Source: Mobula birostris
Lineage: Eukaryota
DNA length: 64,000 bases
Assembly (NCBI RefSeq): GCF_030028105.1
Contig: NC_092400.1
Span: 30,586,206-30,650,205 of the forward strand
Direction of reading: 5' to 3'
In this document: positions 1 to 63,660 of the stretch, in pieces
Layout: each line of letters starts with the position of its first letter
Numbering within the stretch: the first letter of the stretch is position 1
The notes under the pieces: generated by a model
What the model was told of the DNA's origin: nothing
What the model saw: the letters and a program-made list of their open reading frames with translations, nothing else
Databases searched by the model: none
Translations under genes and position numbers: made by a program

Positions 1-191
1 AGGTTGTAGTAGCTCAGACTTCTCTGGTCCTGCATCTCCACGCTTTGGCCATTTTGCACCATCAGACGCTGTTGCAAAATGGGCACCTTGGTCTTTTCCT
101 GGATTTTCATCTTGAGTGTCGACACTTGAATGGAAGGGTCGACATCAAGTTCGAAACCATCGCCGGTGATAAACCTCACCTGAAGTCTCAT
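1..191 (-). CDS. ISG15: ISG15-like di-ubiquitin protein, copy A (N-terminal part; runs off the window edge)
   Basis: Nearly identical to the 5' part of the copy B CDS. ATG at 191-189 is preceded by the acceptor ttctcctttctccacag (exon 2 starts at 203). Confidence 0.85.
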   Translation of the reverse strand, partial: MRLQVRFITGDGFELDVDPSIQVSTLKMKIQEKTKVPILQQRLMVQNGQSVEMQDQRSLSYYN

Positions 192-944
192 CCTGCCAAA
201 TCGCTGTGGAGAAAGGAGAAGTGATTAGAGAGTTTTTACATCAGATGTGCATGAACTATGATGTATTAATATGGCATTGCCTATAATATCAACATAATTA
301 GACTATTTACTAAGATCTGTAGACAAGCGGCAAAAGACAAACCACTCTTTCCCTAGCAGTTCTAAAGGAATTTTGAGCCGCAATACTGACAATTGACGGG
401 AGAGGGACTCTGTGAGCCGGTGGGTTTAAACATTTTTGAACTTTGATTCGATTAGCGGCAAAAAAATGTGTAAATGTGTCATTGAGACCGTAGTAAATGT
501 GCAACTTGTTTAGATTTCTAAGCCAGGACCATTCCAACCGCCGCTTAATTGGGGGGGAAAAATCACTTTTGTCACATCGCGTTAATGGTGTACCGGGGAG
601 AGGACTCGGACTTGTTGCATTGCCGTCTGATATGGAGGGGCCACGACACAGGGTCAGAAAAAGCTGCTGAGGGTGGTAAACTCATCCAGCTCCATCATGG
701 GCACCAATAGAGAGTATCTTCAAAAGGTGATGTCTCAAGGAGAATGCATCGATCAGTATGTGCCTGCAGGTCATGCCCGCTTCTCATTGCTAGCATCAGC
801 GAGGAGCCTGCGGACTCACGCTCAACGTTTCATGAACAGATACTGAACAGTATTTCTGCCCCCCCCCCCCACACACACACGTATATATACTCTGTGTGTG
901 TGTGTGTGTGTGTGTATGCTATTATAATTTCTATTATATGTTAT

Positions 945-1725
945 ATGGAGTTCAACCCGGAGAAGTGTGAGGTGGTACACTTTGGAAGGACAAACTCCAA
1001 GGCAGAGTACAAAGTAAATGGCAGGATACTTGGTAGTGTGGAGGAGCAGAGGGATCTCGGGGTACATGTCCACAGATCTCCGAAAGTTGCCTCACAGCTG
1101 GATAGGGTAGTTAAGAAAGCTTATGGGGTGTTAGCTTTCATAAGTCGAGGGACAGAGTTTAAGAGTCGCGAAGTAATGATTCAGCTCTATAAAACTCTGG
1201 TTAGGTCACACTTGGAATATTGTGTCCAGTTCTGGTCACCTCACTATAGGAAGGATGTGGAAGCATTGGAAAGGATACAGAGGAGATTTACCAGGATGCT
1301 GCCTGGTTTAGAAAGTATGCATTATGATCAGAGATTAAGGGAGCTAGGGCTTTACTCTTTGGAGAGAAGGAGGATGAGACGAGACATGATAGAGGTGTAC
1401 AAGATAATAAGAGGAATAGATAGAGTGGATAGCCAGCGCCTCTTCCCCAGGGCACCACTGCTCAATACAAGAAGACATGGCTTTAAGGAAAGGGGTGGGA
1501 AGTTCAAGGGGGATATTAGAGGAAGGTTTTTTACTCAGGGAGTGGTTGGTGCGTGGAACGCACTGCCTGAGTCAGTGGTGGAGGCAGATACACTAGTGAA
1601 GTTTAAGAGTCTACTAGACAGGTATATGGAGGAATCTAAGATGGGGGCTTATATGGGAGGCAGGGTTTGAGGATCGGCACGACATTGTGGGCCGAAGGGC
1701 CTGTACTGTGCTGTACTATTCTATA
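945..1725 (+). mobile_element. 5'-truncated CR1 LINE in intron 1 of ISG15 copy A
   Basis: MEFNPEKCEVVHFG...HLEYCVQFWSP is the CR1 ORF2 C-terminus. It is absent at the homologous site in copies B-D and is flanked by TTATAT. Confidence 0.9.
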
Positions 1726-2309
1726 TTATATACTGCATTGTACTGCCGCCGCAAATTACCAAGTTTATCGGTTTAAATTAGTGGTGATCACCCCAATTCT
1801 GATACTAAAATCGATTCTGCTGCGAATGAACTCCATTTTACTTTCAACCAAACATTCAATCCCCCTGCTTTCCTGCAAAGAAAGTGTTCACTCCCGACCC
1901 AGACTTCCCGAGTCACTCAATTTACACGCAAATTATTGTCGTGACATGAGCGAAGATTTCATGCACCGTTTTAACAAGACCGTCACTCTACATCAGCCGA
2001 TTAACGGGTTTCACCGAACCGTGAGCCTATCAATCTGAGAAGGAGTGGCCATTCGGCCTGCACCGCTATTCAATGATATCCCCGATGATCCTTTACCTCG
2101 CCGCTAGTTGACAACAATTTGTCGCGTATCTATTGCCCCTTTCTGTAAAGTTAGTTTTCTATTAACTTGTTCTCGCCCCGTGTTTTGTCAGCGGTAGAGA
2201 CTACATTTCCTGCCCGGTTCAGAGGATCTTAGTAATTTAAATTATATTGTCAATGTTGTAAACAGCTAGATAAAAATGAGAACTTTGAGATAATCAAATA
2301 AATTCTTAC

Positions 2310-2470
2310 AATTTTTGTCGACAGTGCAGGAAGTCAGGACGAATCTGAAGAAAATCTAATCAGTGGCTTTTTTCTTTGCCCCTTATTCTGCACCGACTTT
2401 CAGCTCCGGTCCGGGTAAATCAATAGAAATTCTCCGGCTGCTGCTGATCGGTATCCCCGCTCCCGCAACT
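2310..2470 (-). other. Predicted non-coding exon 1 of ISG15 copy A
   Basis: Minus-strand donor AATT|GTAAGA at 2310/2309 has homologues in all five copies. No ATG in the exon. TATA-like GATAAA at ~2500. The 5' end is an estimate. Confidence 0.6.
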
Positions 2471-2577
2471 CTGCGTCTCTCCGCCTCCCCCGGCTCGCTT
2501 TATCTTCTGCTCCCGTTTCTGAACGTCACCGCGCCGCTGGGCTGATCTCAAGGCCCGCTGTCGCTGTGTTGACAAAC

Positions 2578-2690
2578 AAACCAATCAGGTTCCAGCCGAA
2601 GTTTCGTTTCCGAAAAATTCCCCGCAGTGAATTGGAAACGTTTTCGCCCTGTTACAGGGTTCAACGCTATCGGCTGATTCACTTTCGGAT
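2578..2690 (-). promoter_or_regulatory. ISG15 copy A promoter: CCAAT box, ISRE (2600-2611), kB-like site (2613-2623)
   Basis: CCAATC, then AGTTTCGTTTCC (GGAAACGAAACT on the minus strand), then GGGGAATTTT on the minus strand. A degenerate IRF site GATTCACTTTC lies further upstream. Confidence 0.75.
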
Positions 2691-7168: not shown

Positions 7169-7636
7169 TCAGCCTCCACGTAGCCGGAGCAGCAGAGAGA
7201 TGGTGGTTAGTGGTTTGATGTTGTAGTCGGAGAGCAATCGCCCATCCTCCAACTGTTTGCCCTCGTAAACCAGGCGCTGCTGGTCGGGTCTGACCCCTTC
7301 CTGCCGATGGACCCGCGCTTTAAAATTCTGCACGGACTCAGAGGGCATCACGTCGTACGTCGAGGTTTTCCCCTTGTCATTCAGGAGAAATATCTGCATT
7401 GATTCCTCTTTCCTGACCAGCAACATGACGGTGGGGCTGGGGCTGAGGTTGTAGTAGCTCAGACTTCTCTGGTCCTGCATCTCCACGCTTTGGCCATTTT
7501 GCACCATCAGACGCTGTTGCAAAATGGGCACCTTGGTCTTTTCCTGGATTTTCATCTTGAGAGTCGACACTTGAATGGAAGGGTCGACATCAAGTTCGAA
7601 ACCATCGCCGGTGATAAACCTCACCTGAAGTCTCAT
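7169..7636 (-). CDS. ISG15: ISG15-like di-ubiquitin protein, copy B (155 aa)
   Basis: Two tandem ubiquitin-like domains ending in LRLRGG-stop. Fish-ISG15-like motifs [16 protein letters not shown] and [15 protein letters not shown]. Acceptor at 7648/7649, donor at 9012/9013, ISRE promoter. Confidence 0.93.
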
Positions 7637-8315
7637 CCTGTCAAATCGCTGTGGAGAAAGGAGAAGTGAATAGAGAGTTTTTACAACAGATGTGCATGAA
7701 CTATGATGTATTAATATGGCATTGCCTATAATATCAACATAATTAGACTATTTACTAAGATCTGTAGACAAGCGGGAAAAGACAGACCCCTCTTTCCCCA
7801 GCAGTTCTGAATGTGCGACAGGAATTTTGAGCCGCAATACTGACAATTGACGGGAGAGGGACTCCGTGAGCCGGTGGGTTTAAACATTTTTGAACTTGAT
7901 TGGATCAGCGGCAAAAAAATGTGTAAATGTTACCCATTGGAACCGTAGTAAATGTGCAACTTGTTTAGATTTCTAAGCCAGGACCATTCCAACCGCCGCT
8001 TAATAGGGAAAAAAATCACTTCTGTCACATCGTGTTAATGGTGTACCGGGGAGAGCATTCGGACTTGTTGCATCACCGTCTGATATGGAGGGGCCACGGC
8101 ACAGGGTCAGAAAAAGCTGCTGAGGGTGGTAAACTCATCCAGCTCCATCATGGGCACCAACAGAGGGTATCTTCAAAAGGTGGTACCTCATGGAGAAGGC
8201 ATCGATCATTCTGGGCCTGCAGGTCATGCCCGCTTCTCATTGCTACCATCAGTTGGAGCCTGAAGTCTCACGCTCAACGTTTTAGTAACAGATGAACTAA
8301 TGAACAGTATTTTTG

Positions 8316-8322
<7 letters not shown>

Positions 8323-8365: not shown

Positions 8366-9281
8366 GTATATTTTGTGTGTGTGTGTGCGCGTGTGTGTAT
8401 GCTATTATAATTTATATTATATGTCATGTACTGCATTGTACTGCCGCCCCAAATGCCAAATTTATCGATTTAAATTAGTGGTGATCACCCGAATTCTGAT
8501 TCTAAATCGATTCTGCTGCGAATGAACTCCATTTTACTTTCAACCAAACATTCACCCTCCACCCCCGCTTTCCTGCACAGAAAGTGTTCACTCCTGACCC
8601 AGACTTCCCGAGTCACTGAATTCACACGCAAATTATTGTCGTGACATGAACGAAGATGTCATGCACCGTTTTAACAAGACCGTCACTCTACATCAGCCGA
8701 TTAATGGGTTTCACCGAACCGTGAGCCTATCAATCTGAGAAGCAGGAGTGGCCATTCGGCCTGCACCGCTATTCAATGATATCCCCGATGATTCTTTACC
8801 TCGCCGCTAGTTGACAACAATTTGTCGCGTATCTATTGCCCCTTTCTGTAAAGTAAGTTTTCTACTAACTTGTTCTCGCCCCGCGTTTTGTCAGCGGTAG
8901 AGACTACATTTCCTGCCCGGTTCAGAGGATCTTAGTAATTTAAATTATATTGTCAATGTTGTAAACAGCTAGATAAAAATGAGAACTTTGAGATAATCAA
9001 ATAAAGTCTTACAATTTTTGTCGACAGTACCGGAAGTCAGGACGAGTCTGAAGAAAATCTGATCCGCAGCTTTTTTTCTTTGCCCCTTATTCTGCACCGA
9101 CTTTCAGCTCCGGTCCGGGTAAATCAATAGAAATTCTCCGGCTGCTGCTGATCGGTATCCCCGCTCCCGCAACTCTGAGTCTCTCCGCCTCCCCCGGCTC
9201 GCTTTATCTTCTGCTCCAGTTTCTGAACGTCACCGCGCCGCTGGGCCGATCTCACGGCCCGCTGTCGCTGTGTTGACAAAC

Positions 9282-13889: not shown

Positions 13890-14357
13890 TCAGCCTCCAC
13901 GTAGCCGGAGCAGCAGAGAGATGGTGGTTAGTGGTTTGATGTTGTACTCGGAGAGCAATCGCCCAACCTCCAACTGTTTGCCCTCGTAAACCAGGCGCTG
14001 CTGGTCGGGTCTGACCCCTTCCTGCCGATGGACCCGCGCTTTAAAATTCTGCACGGACTCAGAGGGCATCACGTCGTACGTCGAGGTTTTCCCCTTGTCA
14101 TTCAGGAGAAATATCTGCATTGATTCCTCTTTCCTGACCAGCAACATGACGGTGGGGCTGGGGCTGAGGTTGTAGTAGCTCAGACTTCTCTGGTCCTGCA
14201 TCTCCACGCTTTGGCCATTTTGCACCATCAGACGCTGTTGCAAAATGGGCACCTTGGTCTTTTCCTGGATTTTCATCTTGAGAGTCGACACTTGAATGGA
14301 AGGGTCGACATCAAGTTCGAAACCATCGCCGGTGATAAACCTCACCTGAAGTCTCAT
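13890..14357 (-). CDS. ISG15: ISG15-like di-ubiquitin protein, copy C (155 aa)
   Basis: Same as copy B except D131V and D137E. Ends in LRLRGG. Acceptor at 14369/14370, donor at 15725/15726. Confidence 0.93.
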
Positions 14358-15036
14358 CCTGTCAAATCGCTGTGGAGAAAGGAGAAGTGAATAGAGAGTT
14401 TTTACAACAGATGTGCATGAACTATGATGTATTAATATGGCATTGCCTATAATATCAACATAATTAGACTATTTACTAAGATCTGTAGACAAGCGGGAAA
14501 AGACAGACCCCTCTTTCCCCAGCAGTTCTGAATGTGCGACAGGAATTTTGAGCCGCAATACTGACAATTGACGGGAGAGGGACTCCGTGAGCCGGTGGGT
14601 TTAAACATTTTTGAACTTGATTGGATCAGCGGCAAAAAAATGTGTAAATGTTACTCATTGGAACCGTAGTAAATGTGCAACTTGTTTAGATTTCTAAGCC
14701 AGGACCATTCCAACCGCCGCTTAATAGGGAAAAAAATCACTTCTGTCACATCGTGTTAATGGTGTACCGGGGAGAGCATTCGGACTTGTTGCATCACCGT
14801 CTGATATGGAGGGGCCACGGCACAGGGTCAGAAAAAGCTGCTGAGGGTGGTAAACTCATCCAGCTCCATCATGGGCACCAACAGAGGGTATCTTCAAAAG
14901 GTGGTACCTCATGGAGAAGGCATCGATCATTCTGGGCCTGCAGGTCATGCCCGCTTCTCATTGCTACCATCAGTTGGAGCCTGAAGTCTCACGCTCAACG
15001 TTTTAGTAACAGATGAACTAATGAACAGTATTTTTG

Positions 15037-15078
<42 letters not shown>

Positions 15079-15994
15079 GTATATTTTGTGTGTGTGTGTG
15101 CGCGTGTGTGCATGCTATTATAATTTATATTATATGTCATGTACTGCATTGTACTGCCGCCCCAAATGCCAAATTTATCGATTTAAATTAGTGGTGATCA
15201 CCCGAATTCTGATTCTAAATCGATTCTGCTGCGAATGAACTCCATTTTACTTTCAACCAAACATTCACCCTCCACCCCCGCTTTCCTGCACAGAAAGTGT
15301 TCACTCCTGACCCAGACTTCCCGAGTCACTGAATTCACACGCAAATTATTGTCGTGACATGAACGAAGATGTCATGCACCGTTTTAACAAGACCGTCACT
15401 CTACATCAGCCGATTAATGGGTTTCACCGAACCGTGAGCCTATCAATCTGAGAAGCAGGAGTGGCCATTCGGCCTGCACCGCTATTCAATGATATCCCCG
15501 ATGATTCTTTACCTCGCCGCTAGTTGACAACAATTTGTCGCGTATCTATTGCCCCTTTCTGTAAAGTAAGTTTTCTACTAACTTGTTCTCGCCCCGCGTT
15601 TTGTCAGCGGTAGAGACTACATTTCCTGCCCGGTTCAGAGGATCTTAGTAATTTAAATTATATTGTCAATGTTGTAAACAGCTAGATAAAAATGAGAACT
15701 TTGAGATAATCAAATAAAGTCTTACAATTTTTGTCGACAGTACCGGAAGTCAGGACGAATCTGAAGAAAATCTGATCCGCAGCTTTTTTTCTTTGCCCCT
15801 TATTCTGCACCGACTTTCAGCTCCGGTCCGGGTAAATCAATAGAAATTCTCCGGCTGCTGCTGATCGGTATCCCTGCTCCCGCAACTCTGAGTCTCTCCG
15901 CCTCCCCCGGCTCGCTTTATCTTCTGCTCCAGTTTCTGAACGTCACCGCGCCGCTGGGCCGATCTCACGGCCCGCTGTCGCTGTGTTGACAAAC

Positions 15995-21543: not shown

Positions 21544-22493
21544 AAGTGAGGTAAAAGTAACACAGTGGGGAATAGTGACAGTTAAACTTCAATATTTGCT
21601 TTGGAAAAAATAGGAAAGAATGCAGAATAGCTAACATAATGATTCCATTGGGTAAAGTGTTGAATGTGAATTGGGGTTTTTGAGAATCTTGTGCATGGTT
21701 CAAACACCACAATCAAACTTTGGTCAAGATACTTCATCTCTTACCAGGGTCTATAGAACTAGATGAAAGCAATCACACAGAAATGCCAGTGTTCATACAT
21801 TTAGACTTTTATTTAAAAAAATCATTTCAAGTCATATTGGAAATTTCAACAATGAAAATTTCAAAACATTTAGAACTTCAACTAATCTGATTTCATTAAA
21901 TTTTAATGCTAAAATGAAAATAAAGATCATTGGAAGAACACAGTAACTGAAGCAAACAATTTTTGAGCTCGTTAAGGTAAAGCAGTAAGTCATCTCCCCC
22001 TCCCCCATCAAACCCAATCTTTTTAGTGGGATTTGTTTTAAAACATTGTAAATTGAAATTGCCACAGCAGTTATTTCTGGGTCTCTGAGTGAGACCCATT
22101 TTATGTGGGAAGTCATAGACCATCAGATTGTGATCAGCCATTCGGAGTTACATTGATCTGAAGAGGAGGTGCAGGTTGCCAGAGTTCCTTTGATATTGTT
22201 AATATCTGGCCTCTGCAAAATTGACAACCCATGTTTTCCAGGCTGAGAAGGCAACAAGGTGATAAGCAACAAACCTCGATGGGAATTTATGTCATTGTCC
22301 GACAGACACCCCATCAGCACAGCATTAATACACAGCGGAAATCGGTCCTTTGTCCAACTTGTGAATGCCAGTGTGGAACGTAGCAGATAGACAGGATAAT
22401 GTAACAAAGTGCTAACGACAGAATATAGGAATGCAATAAAATACCAATAAATTATTTTTAATCACAGTTTTCTCAACCGTCTGCAGGAGTAAA

Positions 22494-22961
22494 TCAGCCT
22501 CCACGTAGCCGGAGCAGCAGAGAGATGGTGGTTCGTGGTCTGATGTTGTAGTCGGAGAGCAATCGCCCATCCTCCAACTGTTTGCCCTCGTAAACCAGGC
22601 GCTGCTGGTCGGGTCTGACCCCCTCCTGCCGATGGACCCGCTCTTTAAACTTCTGCACGGACTCAGAGGGCATCACGTCGTACGTCGAGGTTTTCCCCTT
22701 GTCATTCAGGAGAAATATCTGCATGGATTCCTCTTTCCTGACCAGCAACATGATGGTGGGGCTGGGGTTGAGGTTGTAGTAGCTCAGACTTCTCTGGTCC
22801 TGCATCTCCACGCTTTGGCCATTTTGCACCATCAGACGCTGTTGCAAAATGGGCACCTTGGTCTTTTCCTGGATTTTCATCTTGAGAGTCGACACTTGAA
22901 TGGCAGGGTCGACAGCAAGTTCAAAACCATCACCGGTGATAAACCTCACCTGAAGTCTCAT
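22494..22961 (-). CDS. ISG15: ISG15-like di-ubiquitin protein, copy D (155 aa)
   Basis: Intact ORF, about 8 aa different from copy B, ending in LRLRGG. Acceptor at 22973/22974. Confidence 0.93.
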
Positions 22962-24587: not shown

Positions 24588-24697
24588 AACCAATCAGGTT
24601 CCAGCCGAAGTTTCGTTTCCGAAAAATTCCCCGCAGTGAATTGGAAAAGCCTGCGCCCTGTTACAGGGTTCAACGCTATCGGCTGTTTCACTTTCGG
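24588..24697 (-). promoter_or_regulatory. ISG15 copy D promoter: CCAAT box, ISRE (24609-24620), kB-like site (24622-24632), second ISRE/IRF-E (24685-24695)
   Basis: AGTTTCGTTTCC and GTTTCACTTTC (GAAAGTGAAAC on the minus strand). Confidence 0.78.
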
Positions 24698-38875: not shown

Positions 38876-38979
38876 GCTGTTTTAATGTTTGAAGGATTAT
38901 CGGGCTGGTTTTGCTTAATCGGGGATCTTATATTCATTTGCTCAAATTATCTATTGTGGGCTATTTAAACTGATTGACT

Positions 38980-50568: not shown

Positions 50569-51071
50569 TACATTTTTTCTTGTTAAACTTTCATTCTATT
50601 TAACCCAGGCAAGATATCCTCTCATTCCATTAAAATCAATACTTCTCTAACTGTTTGTGTTTATTTTGGACTCCAACATCGTTTCATTATCTGCAACTTT
50701 CTCGTTTAGTTTCTTCGCACATTTATTACAGATTCAAACAACTACCAAGCAACTCTGCCCAAAATGTCATCTGTTTATTCCCCACCAGAAAGGCTGCCTG
50801 ACCTGCTGAGTTCTACCAGCACTTTCCGTGGGTGCTGAGCAAGATTTTGGGCAAATGCAGAATCTTTCATTTCAGTAAAATCCTGACGCAAAGCGGCTGT
50901 TAATCCAATGTAGGTGCACCATCAATCTGTTCAGAATTGTTGATGCCATGTACCAACTCCAATGGCAGTGACTGAAGCCAGTGTCCAAAGTTGGTGGTTG
51001 GAAGGACAGTGGGGGAGCTGGACAAAGATGCTAGGCCCGCACACTAGCCACATCCTGAAGCTAATCAGTCA

Positions 51072-52285
51072 TACATTCAGCGGCCACTTTATGAGCTACA
51101 CCTGCTCTTTAATGCAAATATCTAATCAGCAAATCATATGGCAGCAACTCATTTCAGAACGGCATGCAGATATGGTCCAAACCAAACAACAGAAAGGGGA
51201 AGAAATGTGATCTAAGTGATTTTGACTGTGGAATGATTGCTGGTGCCAGATGGGGAGGTTTAAGTATTTCAGAAACTGTTAATCTCCTGGGATTTTCACA
51301 CAGTCAACAGTGTCAAAAGTTTACAGAGAATGGTTCCATAAAAAACAAACAAAAGAAAAATCCAGTGAGCTTCTGTTCAGTGGGTGAAAATGCTTTTGTA
51401 AGGGGTTTCTTCTTTTATGTTATTGCTAAGGCTAATAAAACGGCTTCTCTGTGATGTTTGCTGAGACTGGTTCTCTCTCTAGCAGCTTGTTTGGTTATAT
51501 TACTGATAATGAGAATTGTATTCATTTGCTAACCAATTGGGATAGATGTTATTCTTTCTTGTGTGTCTGTAAGCTATTATTTTCATAGGCTTTGGGGAAG
51601 AAGATGCAATGGGGACAGAGAGAGGAGACATGATGCTGTAAGCTGGGCGACGGAACGGACCCCGAGCGGGAGTCCGAGGCCCAGGGTCTTCAGGAGGAGA
51701 GGAGACGAGGACAGACTCGTGTGGAGCATCTGGTTGACCACCGTGGTTGCTCCCAGGCGGCGGGTCAAGGAAGTCGGAGGGGATCTAATGGTGGAAAGCA
51801 GACTCTGTTAATTGAGCTCCAACTTTTGTGCACAAAGTGGTTGGACATTGATAAGTTTGGTGCCTTTTTCTTCCTTTTTATATTGTATTGCTATTAATTA
51901 CATAGTTCCAGTAAGATCTATAAAGTGTAATCATTTAATCGCCTATGGTGTGCTGTCTGTTATTTGGCGTGGTGGGGTACATCACACAGCATTTACACAA
52001 AATCGATTACAGAGTTTGGTGGGGCTGAAGTCTGCTCCCCTTAGACGAAAGCGAGCTGAGCGAGACTGAGGCTACACTTTGTTAATGAAAGAGGTCAGAG
52101 GAGAATGGCCAGACTGGTTCAAGCTGACAGGAAGACGACAGTAACTCAAGAAATCATTTGTTACAATATTTGGTGTGCAGAAAGGCATCTCTGAACACAC
52201 AGCACACCGAACCTTGAAGTGGACAGGCTTGAGCAGCAGAAGACCACAAACTTACTCTCAGTGGCTGCTTTATAAGGTACGGGAG
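51072..52285 (+). mobile_element. Tc1-derived degenerate element hosting a solo LTR
   Basis: TIR-like CA(T/C)TCAG(C/T)GGC start and Tc1 HTH remnant GKKCDLSDFD...GLSISETVNLLGFS. Sequence is continuous across the LTR. Confidence 0.6.
51397..52076. mobile_element. Solo LTR, 680 bp
   Basis: TGTA...TACA termini and a 4-bp TSD CTTT. Confidence 0.8.
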
Positions 52286-53089
52286 GTATCTACCGAATAA
52301 AGGGCCCACTGAGTGTGAAGTCACTACTGGGAATCAGGCTCTACTGCCCAATACAGGCACCATATAGTCACCGGAAAGCACTCATTTACACTAAATCCCT
52401 GGTTATCCTCTTGCAATCCCACCAAGTACCCTCCAGATTTTCCCCCCATCTACCTACACTTGGGGAAATTTATCATAGACAATTACGCCACCAACCAGCA
52501 TGGCAGAAGAAACTGAAGTGCCTGTGGGGGTGGTGGGTGCGGAGACAGGGAGAATGTACAAATCCCACACAAGACGCTGGCCAGAGTCAGGACTGAATCC
52601 TGGCCTCTTGAACTGAGAGGCAGCACAGACTACTGTGTAACTGTTTTTGCCACTGGAGTGGAAGAGGTTGTGGGACGTGGCATTGATGGAAGTTTCTGCC
52701 CAGGTAGGCTGTTCCCAATGCCTTTGTAACTCCTTCAGTACAGGTGTTCTCCCCCCTTCCCCCATAACTACTGACTCAGCCAGTCCAATAACTTGCCCCT
52801 GTCCAGGCTGAGCACCATCCAGTGAGTGCCCAAGTGGGCAATGGGCATCAGGTCCAGGAGGAGGCTTGTTGAGTCTCACCAACCTCAGGCCCAAGTGAAA
52901 CCCCAGAACCTGTTTGACTCTCTCAAATGCTGCTGCCCCGGTCTTATTCCAAGGACGAGCTGGGGATCTATTGTTTCGTTAGGCTGGTTGTCTGCTATTC
53001 ATTGGGCAGATAAATTGTAAAGGGCTCATACAATGATTAAAGTTAAAACTGTTGTAATAAGTTTATTCCATGGTGTCCCAATAATGGAT

Positions 53090-54425
53090 CTCTATCAGCT
53101 TTGCACATCTGGACGCTGCAATTTTTACCCATTCTTCTTTACAAAACTGCTCAAACTCTGTCAAATTGCATGGGGATCGTGAGTGGACAGCACTTTCAAT
53201 TCCTGCCACAAATTATCAATTGAATTGAGGTCTGGACTCTGACTTAGCCACTCCAAGGCATTGACTTTGTTGTTTTTAAGCCATTCTTGTGTAGCTTTGG
53301 CTTTATGCTTGGGGTCATTGTCTTGCTGGAAAACAAACCTTTTCCCAAGTCGCAGTTCTCTTGCAGATTGCATCAGGTTTCCCTCAGGATTTCTCTGTAT
53401 TTTGCTGCATTCATTTTACTCTCCTCATTCATAGCCTTCTAGGGCCTGCTACAATGAATCATCCCACAGCATGATGCAGCCACCGCTATGCTTCACGGTG
53501 GGAATGATGTGTTTTTGATGATTGATGGCCAAAAAGCTCTATTTTGGTTTCAACAGACCACAGAACCTTCTTTCAGCTGACTTCAGAGTCTCCCACATGC
53601 CTTCTGGCAAACTCCAGCTGAGATTTCATGTGAGTTTTTTTTTCAACAGTGGCTTTCTCTTGCCACTCTCCCATAAAGCTGCGACCAGTGAAACACCAGG
53701 CAACAGTGTTGTATGTGCAGTTTCACCCATCTCAGCCACTGAAGCTCAGAGTTGTTATAAGTCTCTTGGTGCCCTCCCTCACTAGTCCCCTCCTTGTACG
53801 GTCATTCAGTTTTTGAGGATCACCTGCTCTAGGTAGATTTACACTGTGCTATAGTCTTTCCATTTCCTGATGAGTGACTTAGCTGCACTACAAAGGATAT
53901 TCAGTGACCTGCAAACTTTCTTGTATCCATCTCCTGACTTGTGCTTTCCAATAACCTTTTTGCAGAGTTGCTTGGAATGCTCTTTTGTCTTCATGGCGTA
54001 GTTTTTGCCAGTATACTGACTCACCAGCAGGTGGACCTTTAAGATACAGGGTATTTTCAGTACAATGAATTGAAACACCTTGACTACACACAGGTTTATA
54101 TACAGTATAGCTAGGACACTCTAACTGACTCTGTGACTTCTGAGACCAATTGGCTGTACCAGTGATGATTTGGTGTGTCATATTAAAAGGCTATTAAAGT
54201 GTCATATTAAATTGTAAGAATACTTATGCAATCAATTATTTTGTATTTTATATTTGTAATTAATTTAGATCACTTTGTAGAGATCTGTTCTCACTTTGAC
54301 ATGAAAGAGTAGTTTTCTGTTGATCATTGTCAAAAAAGCCAAACTAAATCCACTGTGATTCAATTTTGTAAAACAATAAATCACAAAAACTTCCAAAGTT
54401 GAGTGAATACTATTTATGGGCACCG
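53090..54425 (-). mobile_element. Tc1 transposon, decayed transposase with one terminal inverted repeat
   Basis: [12 protein letters not shown]...[15 protein letters not shown] and MKTKEHSKQ...GDGYKK. The TIR ends at TA 54426. Confidence 0.9.
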
Positions 54426-54619
54426 TAAATGACCTAACCAAAAGTTGATAAAAGCATTGAATTGACTGCAGCATTTAACTTATCGGAGGTGGACAGCAGC
54501 AGGCACTTGGCAGATCTCCAGAGAGGATGAGACAGCAGAATTATTGACAGAGTCTGTCATGGTCCTCTTTTCCATAGAGGTCTGGGGGGGGGGGGGGGAG
54601 CGGTTTCAAGAGTTCACCA

Positions 54620-54880
54620 AAGACTCCACACAGACTCAAGGCTGTAATTACTGCCAAAGGTGCATCTACTAAATACTGACTTGAAGGGGGTGAACACTTA
54701 CGCAATCAATTATCTTGTGTTTTATATTTGTAATAAATTGACATCACCTAGTAGTGACCTGTTTTCAGTTTGACACGAAAGAGTAATTTTCTGTTGATCA
54801 GTGTCAAAAAAAACAAATTAAATCCACTGTGATTCAATGAAAACTTCCAAGAGGGGGTGAATACTTTTTTAGAGCCACTG
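54620..54880 (+). mobile_element. 3' end and TIR of the same Tc1 family, opposite orientation
   Basis: RLKAVITAKGASTKY* followed by a repeat of 54215-54425. Confidence 0.8.
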
Positions 54881-55184
54881 AATCTTGTACCAATGTCAAA
54901 CATGGACATTGGTTGAAAATGAATCCTGCTACCACCCAGTGCACATTATTTCTGACAGTACCAGCAGTACTGTACTGTTGTATATTTAACTGTATGTCAA
55001 CTTGCACATCTACACAATACTTTTTTATCTGTCAATATTATTGTGTTAATATTATTTCATGTGTTGTATATGATATGTGCACTATGTTTCGCACCTTGGT
55101 CTCTGAAGAGCATTGTTTCGTTTAGTTGTATACACGTGTACGTTTGATTGACAATCAACTTGATCTTGAAATATAGACATAGCT

Positions 55185-55365
55185 GGCTGGTGGTGTAGTG
55201 GCATCAGCACTGGACTTCAAGGCAAATGGTCATGAGTTCAAATCTCACCGGCTCCTCGCACACTTACCATATGAGCTGGGTTGAGCATTAAGTTAGCCTC
55301 TTAATAAAAAGTCAAATGCTACAGAATAGTAAATATGCCACCCGATGCATATCAAGGTGTGAAGA
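55185..55365 (+). mobile_element. tRNA-derived SINE
   Basis: Pol III box A TGGTGTAGTGG (55191) and box B GAGTTCAAATC (55234). No intact cloverleaf. Confidence 0.6.
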
Positions 55366-55527
55366 AGGTACAGTTTTTGAAGTATATAGAAATCTGAAGG
55401 TTATTCAGTCAGACAAACACCATTGCTCACAACATTAGTTCCTTTATAAACATGAACTAGTTTTATTTCATTTTAAATTGGAAAATATTGTGACAATATT
55501 TTAATAATATTTCCATCAAATGATAAA

Positions 55528-55995
55528 TTAACCTCCACGAAGACGGAGTAGCAGAATGATGGTGCTTTGAGGCTCGATGTTGTAGTCGGAGAGCAACCGG
55601 CCATCCTCCAACTGGATACTCCCAAAGAGCAGGCGCTGCTGGTCGGGTCTGACCCCCTCCTGCCGATGGACCCGCTCTTTAAAACCCTGCACAGACTCAG
55701 AGGGCATCACGTTGTATGTCGTGGTTTCCCCCTTGTTATTCCGGAGGAAGATCTGCATGGATTCCTCTTTCCTGACCAGCAACATGATGGTGGGGCTGGG
55801 GTTGAGGTTGTAGTAGCTCAGACTTCTCTGGTCCTGCATCTCCACGCTTTGGCCATTTTGCACCATCAGACACTGCTAAAAAATGGGCACCTTGGTCTTT
55901 TGCTTGATTCTCATCTTGAGAGTTGACACTTGAATGGAAGGGTCGACGTCAAGTCCAAAACCCTCACCGGTCATAAATTTCACCTGAACTCTCAT
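55528..55995 (-). pseudogene. ISG15: Divergent ISG15-like copy E with Q40* (TAG at 55878-55876); the downstream 112-aa ORF ending in LRLRGG is intact
   Basis: 468-bp frame collinear with copies B-D: MRVQVKFMTGEGF...[12 protein letters not shown]. Acceptor intact at 56007/56008, donor at 63296/63297. Confidence 0.88.
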
Positions 55996-56439
55996 CTTGT
56001 CAAGTCACTGTCAAGAAAGGAGAAGTGATTAGGGAGCTTTGCATCACACGGGGATGTATACCGGTGTATTTATGTGACATTTCCTATAATATCAACACAA
56101 TTAGTATTCTTAGTAATAACAGAATGTTTCACAAATGTTGACCTTGTAGACAAGCAGAGAAAGCCTTATTTATTAATCTGATCTTTTCTCCTCCAGACAC
56201 TGTAATTCTAAAGTGATGGTGTTTGAACTTTGATGAAATAACTGGCAGGATAGACAAAGAAGAGCTTGTGGTATTACAGGAAAGATACTAGCATGGACAA
56301 ACCATGCTATTTCAAATTTACTTTGCATTCCCATTCTGACATATTAATTCTAATTACCCATTTCAATTCTATTTCCCATTCTCATTCCAACATATCAGTT
56401 TATGGTCCCCTCTACTGCCAGGATGAGATCACACAAAGA

Positions 56440-57030
56440 AATGGCAGATGGAATATGGAATTCGTAGGTAATTTTAAGGTCATGCACCTAGGTAAAAAGA
56501 AAAAAAAAGGCAATTTTCTAAGTGGGAAAGAAAATTCAGAAATCAGAGATGCACAGGAGTCCTAGTGTAAAATTCCCAAAGGTTAACTTGCATCTTGAGT
56601 TGATAGTAAGACAAGCAAATAGGATGTCACCATTCTTTTGAAGACGATGAAATTATAAAAGCAAGCACATAATGCTGAGGTTTTCTAAGGGATTGGTCAG
56701 ACCACATTTGGAGTGTTGTGAGCAGTTTTGGGCCCCATCTCTATGAAGGAATGCACTGGCATTGTAGAGTATCCAAAGGAGGCTTAAAACATGAGCCTGG
56801 GAATCAAAGTGCGAACACACATGAGAGCATTTGATGGTTCTGGACCTGTATCAATGGCAGTTTGGAAGAATGAGGGGTGAACCTCCTTGAAATCAACCTG
56901 ATTTTGAAATGACCAGATAGAGTGGATGTGCAGAGCATGTCTCTAATACTGGGAGGGTTCAGGACCAGAGGGCACTGCCTCAAAACAGAAGGACAACCCT
57001 TCAGAACAGGAATGAGAGGCGAGTTTGTAA
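56440..57030 (+). mobile_element. Degenerate CR1 fragment in the copy E intron
   Basis: Decayed WQME...LVRPHLE...RTRGH motifs. Confidence 0.7.
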
Positions 57031-57329
57031 ATCTGACCGTAACAAAGGAAGTTCGGAATGGTGAGGGTAGAGCGCTGCGGAAGGATGGTGACATGGCAGA
57101 AGGTGTGCCGGGAGACACCAGGCAAGGCCATTTGATTCCAAACAATTGGTTTATTGATCATTACTGGATGTCTCTCTGGTGCTTCCCACTCGCTCCCCTC
57201 TCCCTTCTCTTTTCCCAACCATGCTTCCCCTCTCCCTGCCCCCTTCCCAATATCAGTCTGCATATCAGAATCAGGATCAGGTTCATCATCATTCACATAT
57301 GGAAAAGAGTACAGTCGACTTTTCGGGCC

Positions 57330-57860
57330 ATAAGACCATAAGACATCGGAGCAGAATTAGGCCATTCAGCCCATCTAGTCTGCTCCACCATTCCATCATG
57401 GCTGGTCCCAGATCCCAGCCAACCCCATACACCTGCCTTCTCGCCATATCCTTTGTTTCCCTGACCAATCATGAAATGCTCAACTTCCGCCTTAAATATT
57501 CCCATGGACTAGGCCTCCACCGAGGTCTGTGGCAGAGCATTCCACAGATTCACTACTCTCTGGCTAAAAAAAGTCCTCCTTACCTCTGTTCTAAAGGGTC
57601 GCCCCTCAATTCTGAGGCTGTGCCCTCTAGTTCTGAATGCCCCCAATCATAGGAAACATCCCCTCCACATCCACCCCATCTAGTCCTTTCAACATTCAGT
57701 AGGTTTCAATGAGATCTCCACACATTCTTCAAAATTCCAGTGAGTACAGGCCCAAAGCTGTAGGATAATTTGTTCATTCCCAAATTATCCTCTAGAACCT
57801 CCTCTGGACTCTCTCCAAAGACAGCACATCCTTTCTGAGATATCGGGACCAAAACTGTTG
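57330..57860 (-). mobile_element. CR1 3' fragment in the copy E intron
   Basis: Homologous to 33930-34430, with a (CATAAGAC)n tail. Confidence 0.78.
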
Positions 57861-57880
57861 AAATATGTCATGAAATACGT

Positions 57881-60800
57881 TTTTTTGACTTTGTCATGTT
57901 AGGCAAAGATCGCAAGATCCTACATCTACGGACTCCAGAGCCTGCCGGCCCCGACGCTAGCAGGCATGAACTTCAGATTGCGGCTCCCGCCATTGATCTC
58001 GGCAGCTCCAACACCTCAGGGCATATTCAAAACCCGGACTCCAGCAACGACCATGGACACCTTCACAGCGATTACGCAACCACCAACTGCAACTCCAGCC
58101 TTGAACTCCAGGCCGGGTCTTTATGTGCTGCTGTTGTGACTCCCGTCTCCCCTTCCCCACCACCACTCCGCAGCCCCGTCTTCCTCAGATCCCACCGTCA
58201 ACTCCTGGGCCCTCAGAGGCTCCATCTTCCTCTCACCCCAACCCTCCCCACTCCATTGACACCCCCAGCCTCCCCCTCCCCCCTCTGATCCCAGCTCTCA
58301 TCCATGCCGGGTTTTTACCATCCCCTCCGACCTTCAATTGTCAGAGGCAGAACGCTCTGTCCTCAGTAAGGGCCTCACCTTTGTCCCCCTCGCCCACACC
58401 TCAGCGAGTTCCGTGTTCACCACGATGCGGAACTTTGCTTCTGCCGTCTCCGTCTCCGAGCCTACTTCTTCAGCAAGGACTCTTCCACCCCCACCGATGA
58501 CCCCTTCTCCCGTCTTCAACCCTCCTCTTCTTCATGGACACCCCGCTCTGGTCTTCTGCCTGCTCTGGATCTCTTTATCGCTAACTGCCGACGGGACATC
58601 AACCGTCTCGACTTCACCGCACCTTGTCCCCATTCCAACCTCACTCCTTCGGAACACTCTGCTCTCCGCTCCCTCTGCACTAATCCTAACCTTATCATTA
58701 AACCCGCCGATAAGGGGGGTGCTGTTGTAGTCTGGCGTACTGACCTCTACCTTGCCGAGGCACAGCGACAACTCGCGGATACCTCCTCTTATTTACCCCT
58801 TGATCGTGACCCCACTAAGGAGCACCAGGCCATTGTCTCCCACACCATCACCGACTTTATCCGCTCAGGGGATCTCCCATCCACTGCTACCAACCTTATA
58901 GTTCCCACACCCCGCACTTTCCGTTTCTACCTCCTACCCAAGATCCACAAACCTGCCTGTCCTGGCCGGCCTATTGTCTCAGCTTGCTCCTGCCCCACCG
59001 AACTCATTTCTGCATACCTCGACACTGTTTTATCACCCCTTGTTCAATCCCTTCCGACCTATGTTCGTGACACTTCTCACGCTCTTAAACTTTTCGATGA
59101 TTTTAAGTTCCCTGGCCCCCACCGCTTTATTTTCACCATGGATGTCCAGTCCCTATATACTTCCATCCCCCATCAAGAAGGTCTCAAAGCTCTACGCTTC
59201 TTTTTGGATTCCAGACCTAATCAGTTCCCCTCTACCACCACTCTGCTCCGTCTAGCGGAATTAGTCCTTACTCTTAATAATTTCTCCTTTGGCTCCTCCC
59301 ACTTCCTCCAAACTAAAGGTGAAGCTATGGGCACCCGTATGGGTCCTAGCTATGCCTGCCTTTTTGTTGGGTTTGTGGAACAATCTACGTTCCGTGCCTA
59401 TTCTGGTATCTGTCCCCCACTTTTCCTTCGCTACATCGACGACTGCATTGGCGCTGCTTCCTGCATGCATGCAGAACTCGTTGACTTTATTAACTTTGCC
59501 TCCAACTTTCACCCTGCCCTCAAGTTTACCTGGTCCATTTCTGACACCCCCCTCCCCTTTCTAGATCTTTCTGTCTCTGTCTCTGGAGACAGCTTATCCA
59601 CTGATGTCTACTATAAGCCTACTGACTCTCACAGCTATCTGGACTATTCCTCTTCTCACCCTGTCTCTTGCAAAAACGCCATCCCCTTCTCGCAATTCCT
59701 CTGTCTCCGCCGCATCTGCTCTCAGGATGAGGCTTTTCATTCTAGGACGAGGGAGATGCCTTCCTTTTTTAAAGAAAGGGGCTTCCCTTCCTCCACTATC
59801 AACTCTGCTCTTAAACGCATCTCCCCCATTTCACGTACATCTGCTCTCACTCCATCCTCCTGCCACCCCACTAGGAATAGGGTTCCCCTGGTCTTCACCT
59901 ACCACCCCACCAGCCTCCGGGTCCAACATATTATTGTCCGTAACTTCCGCCACCTCCAACGGGATCCCACCAATAAGCACATCTTTCCCTCCCCCACCTC
60001 TCTCTGCATTCCGCAGGGATCGCTCCCTAAACAACTCCCTTGTCCATTCGTCCCCCCCATCCCTCCCCACTGATCTCCCTCCTGGCACTTATCCGTGTAA
60101 GCGGAACAAGTGCTACACATGCCCTTACACTTCCTCCCTTACCACCATTCAGGGCCCCAAACAGTCCTTCCAGGTGAGGCAACACTTCACCTGTGAGTCG
60201 ACTGGGGTGATATACTGCGTCCGGTGCTCCCGATGTGGCCTTTTATATATTGGCGAGACCCGACGCAGACTGGGAGACCGCTTTGCTGAACATCTACGCT
60301 CTGTCCGCCGGAGAAAGCAGGATCTCCCAGTGGCCACACATTTTAATTCCACATCCCATTCCCATTCTGACATGTCTATCCACGGCCTCCTCTACTGTAA
60401 AGATGAAGCCACACTCAGGTTGGAGGAACAACACCTTATATTCCGTCTGGGTAGCCTCCAACCTGATGGCATGAACATCGACTTCTCTAACTTCCGCTAG
60501 GCCCCACCTCCCCCTCATACCCCATCTGTTACTTATTTTTATGCACACATTCTTTCTCTCACTCTCCTTTTTCTCCCTCTGTCCCTCTGAATATACCTCT
60601 TGCCCATCCTCTGGGTCCCCCCCGCCCCCCCCGTCTTTCTTCCCAGACCTCCTGTCCCATGATCCTCTCATATCCCCTTTGCCAATCACCTGTCCAGCTC
60701 TTGGCTCCATCCCTCCCCCTCCTGTCTTCTCCTATCATTTTGGATCTCCCCCTCCCCCTTTCAAATCCCTTACTCACTCTTCCTTCAGTTAGTCCTGACG

Positions 60801-60922
60801 GAGGGTCTCGGCCTGAAACGTCGACTGCACCTCTTCCTAGAGATGCTGCCTGGCCTGCTGCGTTCACCAGCAACTTTGATGTGTGTTTCTTGAATTTCCA
60901 GCATCTGCAGAATTCCTGTTGT
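57881..60922 (+). mobile_element. Penelope-like retroelement (RT + Cys-rich linker + GIY-YIG endonuclease; Neptune-like), frameshifted
   Basis: Motifs IIKPADKGG, MDVQSLYTSI, AMGTRMGPSYA, RYIDD, PCKRNKCYTC and GVIYCVRC...YIGET. TGAAATACGT on both flanks. Confidence 0.93.
60791..60826 (+). ncRNA. Minimal type-I hammerhead ribozyme-like motif of the Penelope element (A9G core variant)
   Basis: AGTC-CTGACGG-AGGGTCTCGGCCT-GAAAC-GTC-GACT. Confidence 0.6.
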
Positions 60923-61978
60923 TTGAAATACGTCATGATTTTTTTTTCTGTGGCAGCAGTACTATGCAATACATAAAATTACTACAGTATTGTGCAGAAG
61001 TTTTAGCCACCCTAGCTATATACTGCATGTGCACAAGACTTTTGCACAGTACTGTTCATCTTACGGTCCTATGGTCGTATTGAGTTCAAAGTTTGCTGGA
61101 CACACCAGGTCCTCCGTAATCGGGCTCAGGTTTAGCAAGCTGCAATGGGACTGTTTCAGGGGAAATCAGAACAGGGTTTTAAACACCGGCAGCAAAAAGC
61201 TGACTCGATGGGGGAACTCCGCGGGTCAGGTAGACCTGTGAAAGTTGGGGGAAGTCGACGCGTCGGACCCGGAGTCCCGATGCAGGGTCTTGACCTGAAA
61301 GGTCGACCATCTCTCTGTATTCACGGACGCCGCTCAGCCCGACGAGTTCCTCCAGCAATTCGCTTTTTATCCAGATTCCCGCAATGGCAGTTCAGTGTGC
61401 CAAACTGATTTCGCTCCTTTTCTCCGAACCTTTTATCTAATCAGTGGCCGAGAAAGTGCGTGAATTAGAGATAAAGACTGCAGATACTCGGGGCCGTGTT
61501 AAATGACGCACTTGTGTAGTTTTATAAGCTTGGCGTACTCAAATCAGCGTTCCACAGAGACAAATAAAACAAATTAACACCCCCCCCCCGCCCCGCCCGA
61601 CACACACACCACTTCTCCCAGCGCGATCATCTGCCGTGAATTATTTCGGTCTGACTCTCAGCCAACACTGCTTTCCCGCACAGAAAGTGTTCACTCCGAA
61701 CCCAGACTCCCGAGTCACCCTATTCACACACGCGTTATTATCTTCGCAACATTAATGAACATTTTACGCACTATCTCAACAAGCCACACAATAATCCCAT
61801 AGGAACGATTCCAGCCGAGGTCTTTTTATCCGGTTTTAAGGTTAAAGGAGGAGGGAAGAGCCCAACTATGCTCACTGCGGTGCAGCGGATCTTCCGACTT
61901 TTCAATAAAGTTCCCCGCCCGCCCTCCGTCTTCCCTGGCGACGAAAGCTCTCGGCCTGAAACCACGGACCGGCATCTC

Positions 61979-62318
61979 CAGACATCCCACCGTGAAAAAC
62001 TGATTTCAGGGAGGTAGCACCATCAACTTGCGGGAGAGTTCCGGGAGGGGTGGGAAGTCTGCAATAGAGTAGCTCCTTTGCAGCTGGCCAGCTAGTGTAA
62101 ATAACGTTAGCTATGCTAATGAACAAATGACACCTCTTAAACTCATCTCAACATGTCTTTTACAGTCTTAACCCACCATGGGCAACAGAAAAGTCATTGT
62201 TGCAAACAGGGCAGCGAGCAACACTGTCATTATTTTGACCCCTATTAGGCAGGGGTACACTTTAGTGTAGTCTGGGGTGACGAACGTTTTATAATTTTTT
62301 TGGAACACTCTGCCATGG

Positions 62319-62370
<52 letters not shown>

Positions 62371-62608
62371 ATCGCTTGCGCTCTCGCTGGCTTTCTCGTT
62401 CGCTCGCGCGCTCGCTTGCCTTCGCGCTCTCTCACTTTAGCGCGCGCGCTCTCTCTCTCGTGGACGCTCTCGCGCTCTCTCTTGCTTTTCTCTCGCTTGC
62501 TCTCAAAAAAATTGATTTCCGTGATATTGTATATAATTTTCGGGCATCAGGGAGCCATTATTAATATGCGGGAGACTCCTGGAAGTTCCGGGAGAGGTGG
62601 GATGTCTG
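61979..62608. mobile_element. MITE with an internal (CT)n tract
   Basis: Perfect 13-bp TIR CAGACATCCCACC with a CATCTC duplication. An alternative reading is a 12-bp TIR with 8-bp TSD GCATCTCC (hAT-like). Confidence 0.85.
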
Positions 62609-62736
62609 CATCTCCCTCCACATGAACTGCTTGACCCACGGTGTTCCTCAAACAGGAGAAAATCTGCAGATGCTGTATATCCAAAGCAACACACACAAAA
62701 TGCTGGAGGAGCTCAGCGTCTATGGAAAAGAGTGCA

Positions 62737-62774
62737 CAGTCGACGTTTCAGGACGTGACCCTTCATCAGGATTG
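62737..62774 (-). ncRNA. Hammerhead ribozyme-like motif with intact core, on the sense strand of the copy E intron
   Basis: Minus strand reads CAATC-CTGATGA-AGGG-TCACG-TCCT-GAAAC-GTC-GACTG. Confidence 0.6.
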
Positions 62775-63296
62775 GGAATAGGGGTGGGCAGGAGGTGGAC
62801 TGTCATTTCATCTTTTTTTTTATCCCCAGTCCTGAAGAAGGGCCTCGGCTCGAAGTGTAGGCTGTTCACTCTTTTCCACAGATGCTGCCTGACCTGCTGA
62901 GTTTCTCCAGTGTTTTGTGCGTTACGCGATTCCAGCACCCGCTTTCTTTCGCGAAGCCAGTTTACCGAGGCCGACTGTGTAAAATAGCTAAACAAGCATC
63001 GCAAAACCATAAACGTATCGCTGTGGGAAGCAGGAGCGGCCATTTCACCTGCTCTACAGTTCAGTGATAATCCCGATTGACGTTCCCCTTGCCGCCACTT
63101 CTCTGCAGTCACTCCAAATCCATCGAATCCCTTTCTATAAAGTTTCTTTTTCTGATTAACCTTTCTCTCCCTCTATATTGTCAACTGTAACCTGAAGACT
63201 ACGGTTCAGAGAATTGTATGTTATATACAGTACTTTATATTCAAAGAAAAAATCAAATGAAAGTGAGAACTTTGAGATTACCAAATAAAGCCTTAC

Positions 63297-63460
63297 AATT
63301 CTTGGCAGTACAGGGAATAGGGACGAATTTATAGAAAGATCTGATCTACAAGATGTCTTCTGTGCCTTTTACTCCGCACCGACTCTCAGCTCTGCGCCGT
63401 ATCTGTGTGGGCTTCTTCTGAGCGCTGCCGATCTACTTTCCGGTGTCAGACCCGTCTCCG
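63297..63460 (-). other. Predicted non-coding exon 1 of ISG15 copy E
   Basis: Aligns with 2310-2470. Donor AATT|GTAAGG. The 5' end is an estimate. Confidence 0.55.
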
Positions 63461-63549
63461 CCTTCCTCCGCCCGCTATTTTTTATTTTCCGCGCTGGTTT
63501 CGGACCCTCGCCGAGCCGCTGTCCTGATTGCACAGCCCTGATGGTGACG

Positions 63550-63660
63550 GTGTCGACAAACAAACCAACCAGATTCCAGCCAGACTTCCCGGGAAATTCC
63601 CCTGCCGTGTTTGGAAAAAGTCTCCATCCTGTTCCAGGGTTGAAGATTATCGGCTATCTC
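63550..63660 (-). promoter_or_regulatory. Copy E promoter homolog: STAT-type palindrome TTCCCGGGAA (63586-63595) overlapping a consensus NF-kB site GGGAAATTCC(CC) (63591-63602); no ISRE
   Basis: Flanks align with the A-D promoters (gacaaacaaacca...ttccagcc...ttggaaa...cagggtt). Confidence 0.7.

Follow-up and report, generated by a model that had tools for sequence, protein, structure and literature searches.

Does the neighbourhood of ISG15-like and OASL-like genes in a ray genome record how OASL acquired its tail of two ubiquitin-like domains (UBLs)? The question was raised by a stretch of 64,000 nucleotides from Mobula birostris (C36:30586206–30650205, C36 being contig NC_092400.1; hereafter the window), in which an OASL-like gene stands within an array of ISG15-like genes coding for two tandem UBLs (di-UBL). 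A reading of the window from its sequence alone (the sequence-only reading) had proposed that an OAS gene captured an ISG15-like exon here, or that the exon became an independent gene, and that the interleaving may preserve this setting. In the accessible parts of earlier work, the UBL of OASL is ascribed to an unspecified 'domain fusion of UBL' (PMC6307210), and chicken OASL is described as behaving like ISG15, the origin of the likeness not being addressed (PMC8764230). From the surrounding locus, we consider it probable that an ISG15-like array stands head-to-head with an OAS/OASL cluster, a pairing likely ancestral for jawed vertebrates, and that a recent tandem duplication of a block comprising ISG15 array and OASL is the likely reason why an OASL pseudogene is enclosed in the array. 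Gene content, strands, near-identical blocks, the deletion, stop codons, ISG15-like splicing and a transcript of the intact sister OASL were observed directly.

Organization of the locus

The window holds five ISG15-like di-UBL genes (A–E), all on the minus strand, with A truncated at the window edge. The exon coordinates (Table 1) confirm that the OASL-like gene lies between D and E, on the plus strand, so the two families are on opposite strands, and that this OASL copy is broken. Exon mapping likewise confirmed that the di-UBL is held within a single exon in all six genes of the window.

The window is a piece of a larger locus. Nine ISG15-like copies occupy C36:30.56–30.66 Mb, and eight OAS genes or fragments adjoin them at C36:30.62–30.91 Mb, in the order E0, Z, A, B, C, D, OASL pseudogene, E, F, G, intact OASL and six more OAS genes or fragments. 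In a genome-wide profile search (4.0 Gb), all nine ISG15-like copies and 21 of the 23 OAS1_C matches fell in C36:30.56–30.91 Mb; the remaining two were weak, stop-containing and located on C21:16362675–16366083. The basic unit has a head-to-head layout: exon 1 of G and the ATG of the intact OASL are about 7.8 kb apart, and sites with the pattern of the interferon-stimulated response element (ISRE) are found at both ends of this intergenic stretch. The earlier proposal of an interferon-effector cluster is supported.

Copies A–D are mutually 97–99.6% identical in DNA. Copy E represents a second subtype, 88% identical in nucleotides to A–D and 99.4% identical to E0, which lies left of the window. 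Tandem ubiquitin-like domains were recognized as two stretches of Pfam PF00240 in copies B and D. The C-terminus is LRLRGG in A–D and in E (broken upstream), and in eight of the nine copies of the locus; E0 (C36:30560583–30561050), an open copy of the divergent subtype, ends in LRLCGG. The same subtype ends in LRLRGG in Hemitrygon. Judging from these sequences, the divergent subtype may be non-conjugating or decaying in this ray.

The splice 22973–24318 of copy D was present in contigs of both RNA-like runs and missing from two DNA runs; the RNA nature of the former (X5 and X7) was guessed and is supported by their spliced contigs. The acceptor of the ISG15-like genes is in frame (phase 0), 12 nt or 4 codons before the ATG. 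ISRE-pattern sites were found approximately 180 nt upstream of exon 1 in A–D and were lacking in the homologous region of E. With the ISRE consensus, 11 matches were counted in the window vs. 2.75 in shuffles. Three-UBL ISG15-like models (UBL1-UBL2-UBL2) occur in Mobula hypostoma (P0001) and Pristiophorus (P0252), which suggests an internal duplication of the second domain.

A broken OASL copy within duplicated blocks

The OASL copy of the window is a pseudogene because its promoter, exon 1 and exon 2 are deleted and exon 3 carries a TAG. Compared to the sister copy, located 54–59 kb to the right, a 5,182 bp deletion took out an ISRE-like site, exon 1 and the nucleotidyltransferase (catalytic) exon 2. 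The sister copy keeps exons 1–2 with the GS motif and catalytic aspartates (C36:30672562–30676155). PF10421 (OAS1_C) still matches the window copy, but the frame is interrupted by the TAG. The deletion junction is bridged by a contig of run X1 and the TAG is carried by a contig of run X4, both runs being of one sample, possibly the assembled individual. The RNA-like contig over exon 3 has the letters of the sister copy and is spliced to the sister's exon 2; therefore, the transcript seen derives from the intact copy. The intact sister corresponds to residues 1–508 of model P0121, has intact motifs and ends in LRVRGG and a short tail. It may be competent for 2-5A (2'-5'-oligoadenylate) synthesis activated by double-stranded RNA and, by analogy, may be processed and conjugated as in chicken OASL.

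Two pairs of blocks are near-identical: C36:30555882–30575663 with 30636774–30655803 (93–98%) and C36:30606144–30626377 with 30660298–30685650 (97–99%). No N occurs across 464 kb of the locus. These blocks indicate that OASL was likely placed between D and E by a recent tandem duplication of the ISG15 array together with OASL, through which the first OASL copy ends up in that position. Being the product of a recent block duplication, and with a pseudogene as the enclosed OASL, the interleaving is silent on origin. It is real but ordinary, and the idea that it preserves the setting of an exon capture was not borne out.

The blocks could instead be alternative haplotypes set in tandem by the assembler, in which case the OASL between D and E would be a deleted allele and the interleaving an artefact. 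Their identity of 93–99% agrees with this, and the contigs carrying the junction and the TAG had about half or less the depth of the shared sequence, as would be expected equally of a single heterozygous locus and of two loci. However, the 464 kb are without a gap, and the blocks diverge by 1–7% and differ in ISG15 copy number. The summed contig depth over OASL exons 3–4 was twofold in this species (14.2 and 16.6) relative to a relative's run (6.8 and 8.4), a weak point, and the ISG15 bins were alike between those runs (37–39 vs. 39–42), also weak as such depth is no copy number. We consider the artefact quite unlikely.

The repeat unit measures 6.7 kb for ISG15 and 33 kb for OASL (99.5% identity); three such OASL units lie at C36:30722388–30813514. 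In many sharks, public models fuse OASL units of this kind into 'OAS3-like' proteins of 1,400–2,300 aa, which are likely annotation joins. One OAS remnant of the cluster consists of exons 1 and 5 and a divergent di-UBL exon, with no match for exons 2–4, and another OAS gene has no match for the UBL exon (C36:30864903–30867688 and 30819105–30833612).

Linkage of ISG15-like and OAS genes in other species

The linkage is not peculiar to this assembly. An ISG15-like protein was listed for 17 other elasmobranchs, 15 of which also had an OAS protein with a contig size, and in 15/15 the two were on the same chromosome (same-sized contig). These were Mobula hypostoma, Hemitrygon, Hypanus, Rhinoraja, Leucoraja, Amblyraja, Narcine, Heptranchias, Heterodontus, Cetorhinus, Carcharodon, Mustelus, two Scyliorhinus and Hemiscyllium. 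Pristiophorus (no contig sizes), Rhincodon (no OAS row) and Pristis and Stegostoma (OAS rows only) were not counted. The proteins were the best 120 of 1,721 and the best 120 of 270, and further copies elsewhere are possible; one homologue search (33 rows) reached only elasmobranchs, lungfish and two ubiquitin-like proteins. Accession order roughly follows chromosomal position. Accession numbers were compared on both sides for seven species, and the closest ISG15-like and OAS numbers differed by 1, 2, 4, 13, 70, 225 and 385, i.e., by 1–13 in four of them.

In coelacanth, three gene models (H3BDF0, H3BDE9 and XP_014342322) put a di-UBL right after an OAS unit, and in two of them a second OAS unit stands behind it. 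This di-UBL scored 130–140 bits with the ray ISG15-like genes vs. 33–42 bits with ray OASL tails, and its identity was 49–57% with the ISG15-like proteins of ray, shark and lungfish vs. 28–37% with OASL tails. Whether it is a mis-joined free gene or a true fusion, according to these models an ISG15-clade di-UBL is situated amid OAS genes of the same strand.

The linkage is well supported as conserved in elasmobranchs and is likely ancestral for jawed vertebrates. Several points weigh against an ancestral pairing. Sharing a chromosome does not amount to adjacency, the 15 species do not count as independent, and three of the seven accession gaps are large (70, 225 and 385). The coelacanth evidence consists of gene models, not DNA, and in lungfish a gap of 1,368 separates the accessions of ISG15-like and OASL proteins, with 2-Gb pieces that are uninformative. 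The flanking genes on C36 differ from the human OASL neighbours, and a gene-by-gene match to the human locus is impossible. According to one source, ISG15 emerged in gnathostomes, and zebrafish and human ISG15 are syntenic (PMC5381560); if they are syntenic, ISG15 was apart from OAS early in bony vertebrates, or the ray gene is a paralogue.

As a paralogue, the ray gene would belong to a parallel di-UBL lineage kept at the OAS locus in sharks, lungfish and coelacanth, with teleost and mammalian ISG15 located elsewhere. Besides the synteny just mentioned, this would agree with the label 'polyubiquitin-like' given to the shark proteins in most databases and with the thin margin of the atlas scores (0.95 for ISG15 clusters and 0.93 for the ubiquitin D cluster). 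Human ISG15 adjoins AGRN on 1p36, and no ISG15-like match was found on C32, the ray contig that carries AGRN. On the other hand, the genome-wide search revealed just one ISG15-like locus; ubiquitin matches at C3:122.5 Mb and C36:22.3 Mb turned out to be ubiquitin or ribosomal-fusion retrocopies, not di-UBL modifiers. Among the best 60 of 374 PDB matches, the best full-length non-ubiquitin one was mammalian ISG15 (96.5 bits in one stretch, residues 3–155), followed by the chicken OASL tail (87 bits), and FAT10 did not appear. One source names the Narcine protein ISG15, and the two exons, the intron in the 5' untranslated region (UTR) and the ISREs are as described for teleost ISG15 in PMC9680060. 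A parallel lineage seems unlikely.

No description of ISG15-OAS linkage was found in the literature searched, which lay mostly outside subscription journals. The accessible parts of 10.1101/693333, PMC12234341, PMC11354881 and PMC6002735 contain nothing on it, and that of PMC6307210 mentions neither ISG15 nor synteny.

Phylogeny of the UBL modules and exon homology

The main tree was built from 29 rows and 155 columns, with di-ubiquitin as the sole outgroup; topology tests (p values of the approximately unbiased test, p-AU) were run under LG+G4 on 22 of the 29 rows, and the domain-split tree comprised 35 rows and 73 columns. Single-UBL tails ending in LRLRGG or CaaX were excluded from the main tree and the topology tests. 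The main tree recovered an ISG15-like clade (100/98) of sharks, rays and lungfish with the coelacanth tail, and apart from it an OASL-tail clade (96/91), in which the window OASL tail grouped with shark tails (100/99) and then with those of lungfish, finch, bat and marsupial. The coelacanth di-UBL forced together with all OASL tails was rejected (p-AU 0.013). Because each clade contains sharks and lobe-fins, and with the rejected topologies, the trees place the ISG15-like and OASL modules as distinct before the split of sharks and bony fish. Any shared origin predates this split, and its direction is unreadable from these trees.

It follows from the separate clades that the ray OASL did not capture the exon of its ISG15 neighbour. 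Adjacency and a common exon phase might suggest that, within sharks and rays, such a capture took place recently or the array arose by budding from the OASL tail. This is hardly credible, as the di-UBL of the window OASL shares only 32% identity with the adjacent ISG15 (ISG15 vs. di-ubiquitin, 45%), the genes are on opposite strands, and both a clade of ray ISG15 with ray OASL (p-AU 1e-50) and one of shark ISG15 with shark OASL (p-AU 0.00036) were rejected. Of the capture or release of an exon suggested by the sequence-only reading, the recent version is rejected, and an older shared origin is plausible.

In the domain-split tree, UBL1 of ISG15 joined UBL1 of OASL (89/92) and the UBL2s joined each other (67/52), the pattern expected from a single di-UBL ancestor. 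In both ray exon types, the exon start is in phase 0 and lies exactly 4 codons ahead of the first residue of the UBL; this common acceptor and offset fit exon homology. PMC9680060 places the human ISG15 intron after the ATG; therefore, the 4-codon offset is not universal. Overall, the sequence comparisons favour a common di-UBL ancestor of ISG15 and the OASL tail.

Some results weigh against a common ancestor. The trees are without mammalian or teleost ISG15 and without FAT10; long branches may attract in the domain-split tree; residues shared vs. ubiquitin were not enriched between the two UBL1 groups (13% vs. 11–18% in crossed pairs); and an independent origin of the two di-UBLs was compatible with the data (p-AU 0.22). 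In the latter case, ISG15 and the OASL tail would have arisen separately from polyubiquitin, become neighbours through the landing of one next to the other and been kept together for shared interferon control. ISG15-like proteins are indeed closer to di-ubiquitin (45–47%) than to shark OASL tails (32–40%), and UBL1 of shark OASL is without the loop insertion of ISG15 UBL1. Yet the acceptor offset and phase are identical in both exon types, the best tree pairs like domains with like, and two features of ISG15-like proteins that ubiquitin lacks, the UBL1 insertion at that site and the second-strand tyrosine of UBL2, recur in OASL tails from lungfish, finch, bat and marsupial. We regard separate origins as somewhat unlikely. 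This alternative accepts the linkage and differs from our explanation on origin only.

We also considered that the OASL tail of tetrapods might be a mosaic whose UBL2 comes from ISG15; this was neither shown nor rejected (p-AU 0.46 for UBL2). Hints of it were given by motifs and by the chicken tail, which scored 87 bits with ray ISG15 vs. 58.5 bits with the ray OASL tail. A clade of ISG15 with bony OASL tails was rejected for UBL1 (p-AU 0.014) and for both domains (p-AU 0.033).

Possible history of the locus

In the explanation that we prefer, an ancestral head-to-head pairing with later block duplication, both families would be induced by interferon via ISRE-like sites, the free di-UBL would be conjugated through LRLRGG as ISG15 is, and unequal crossing-over would expand and prune the locus by birth and death. 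Less firmly, a single di-ubiquitin-derived exon may have been duplicated here before the divergence of sharks and bony fish, yielding the free di-UBL exon and the OASL-tail exon; the parting of ISG15 and OASL in mammals would be later.

A shared exon origin of ISG15 and the OASL tail is plausible and unproven. In its full form, ISG15 would have originated at the OAS locus: a di-ubiquitin-derived exon would have been duplicated there in the jawed-vertebrate ancestor, one copy remaining joined to an OAS gene as OASL and the other turning into the free modifier. The pair would have been kept in sharks, rays and coelacanth and separated in mammals, with the OAS half lost in teleosts and the free half in birds; coelacanth OAS may splice onto an ISG15-clade exon by recapture. 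We propose this history tentatively, leaning slightly toward doubt. If true, the common origin would explain why the avian OASL tail can stand in for the lost ISG15. The conserved linkage in sharks, rays and apparently coelacanth offers a place and a time for the origin of ISG15 and the OASL tail, testable by synteny. This linkage is the main result; the interleaving and the pseudogene are ordinary.

Other features of the locus

Coordinates of the features in the window are given in Table 1.

Table 1. Features of the 64,000-nt window of Mobula birostris contig NC_092400.1 (ORF, open reading frame).
Feature	Position	Strand	Remarks
Copy A, exon 2 start	1..203	-	ATG at 191; remainder left of window; ORF (1-191) intact to LRLRGG
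Copy A, non-coding exon 1	2310..2418	-	by homology to exon 1 of D (92%); ISRE-like site at 2601
Copy B, exon 2 coding part	7169..7648	-	ORF 7169-7636; 155 aa, ends LRLRGG
Copy B, exon 1	9013..9122	-	by homology; ISRE-like site at 9305
Copy C, exon 2 coding part	13890..14369	-	ORF 13890-14357; 155 aa, ends LRLRGG
Copy C, exon 1	15726..15835	-	by homology; ISRE-like site at 16018
Duplicated block 1, right part (copy D and OASL pseudogene)	19939..40172		97-99% to C36:30660298-30685650 (copy G and intact OASL)
Copy D, exon 2 coding part	22494..22973	-	ORF 22494-22961; acceptor 12 nt before ATG at 22961
Copy D, intron	22974..24317	-	1,344 nt, GT-AG; skipped in RNA-like contigs
Copy D, non-coding exon 1	24318..24427	-	without ATG
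Two ISRE-like motifs upstream of copy D	24610..24696		at 24610 and 24685
Junction of 5,182 bp deletion vs. sister copy	32019..32022	+	bridged by 79-nt DNA contig, no mismatch
OASL pseudogene, exon 3	32349..32524	+	in-frame TAG at 32468-32470
OASL pseudogene, exon 4 (OAS1_C)	33548..33798	+	
OASL pseudogene, exon 5	35268..35400	+	phase-0 donor
OASL pseudogene, exon 6 (di-UBL)	37733..38230	+	tandem UBL ending LRVRGG, then 12-residue tail; phase-0 acceptor 4 codons before UBL
Duplicated block 2, start	50569..64000		93-98% to C36:30555882 onward
Copy E, exon 2	55528..56007	-	ORF 55528-55995; divergent subtype; TAG at codon 40 (55876-55878)
Copy E, diverged exon 1 and promoter region	63282..63661	-	69% to those of D; no ISRE-pattern match within

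The locus is flanked by a P2X2-like gene on the left (C36:30457174–30495773) and by PLA2-like and INPP5J-like genes on the right (31.04–31.10 Mb), the latter an inositol 5-phosphatase with a SKICH domain. The adjacent P2X gene was tried as P2RX7 or P2RX4, the human OASL neighbours, and this was ruled out as its exon matches P2X2 best. C36 also carries HNF1, the other P2X gene and a DTX gene, at distances of 8–25 Mb, and no match on C36 came from the FYVE_2 search for rabphilin. Between the P2X gene and the ISG15 array lies a 192-aa open frame (C36:30538613–30539188, minus strand) without a Pfam match. Within the window, retrotransposon reverse-transcriptase ORFs and a hAT-like fragment were noted at 58370–60500, 19563–21233 and 41982–42849, with family names assigned from motifs; one of these reverse-transcriptase ORFs has 567 aa and a GIY-YIG-like end.

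The last OAS gene of the cluster (C36:30895492–30910115) terminates in one UBL with a CaaX-like tail (CILL) behind it. Its exon 3 is frameshifted at C36:30897580–30897583, through pseudogenization or an assembly error. An OAS-UBL-CaaX end is also present in many sharks and rays, coelacanth, a caecilian and an amphisbaenian (P0122, P0123, P0132, P0309, P0323, P0435 and others), and turtle and gecko OAS proteins have a similar tail without the UBL. The tail of human OAS1 p46 is prenylated, and it may descend from this UBL-CaaX exon. The literature search for the OAS-UBL-CaaX end returned nothing mentioning sharks.

Comparison with known systems

Like mammalian and teleost ISG15, the ray genes code for two UBLs ending in LRLRGG and have two exons, the di-UBL being wholly in exon 2. 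According to PMC9680060, teleost ISG15 also has an intron in the 5' UTR and ISREs, and two seabass copies are 2.9 kb apart, i.e., small tandem arrays exist in teleosts. In contrast to ISG15, the ray has nine copies in two subtypes without a C-terminal propeptide, and they adjoin the OAS cluster and are not on the AGRN contig.

Avian and mammalian OASL resemble the ray genes in having an OAS unit and a tandem UBL in one last exon. The intact ray OASL, with its GS motif, catalytic aspartates and LRVRGG plus short tail, is similar to the conjugatable pro-form of chicken OASL described in PMC8764230. The ray differs in that the window copy is a pseudogene and in the tandem expansion of the family, of which birds and reptiles retain one OASL, according to PMC6307210. 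Shark OASL tails are without the UBL1 insertion of their lungfish and tetrapod counterparts.

Birth-and-death tandem immune clusters are exemplified by rodent Oas1. The ray locus is similar in its near-identical tandem units and in pseudogenes formed by deletion, stop and frameshift; unlike clusters of the rodent Oas1 type, its duplicated unit covers two different interferon effector families.

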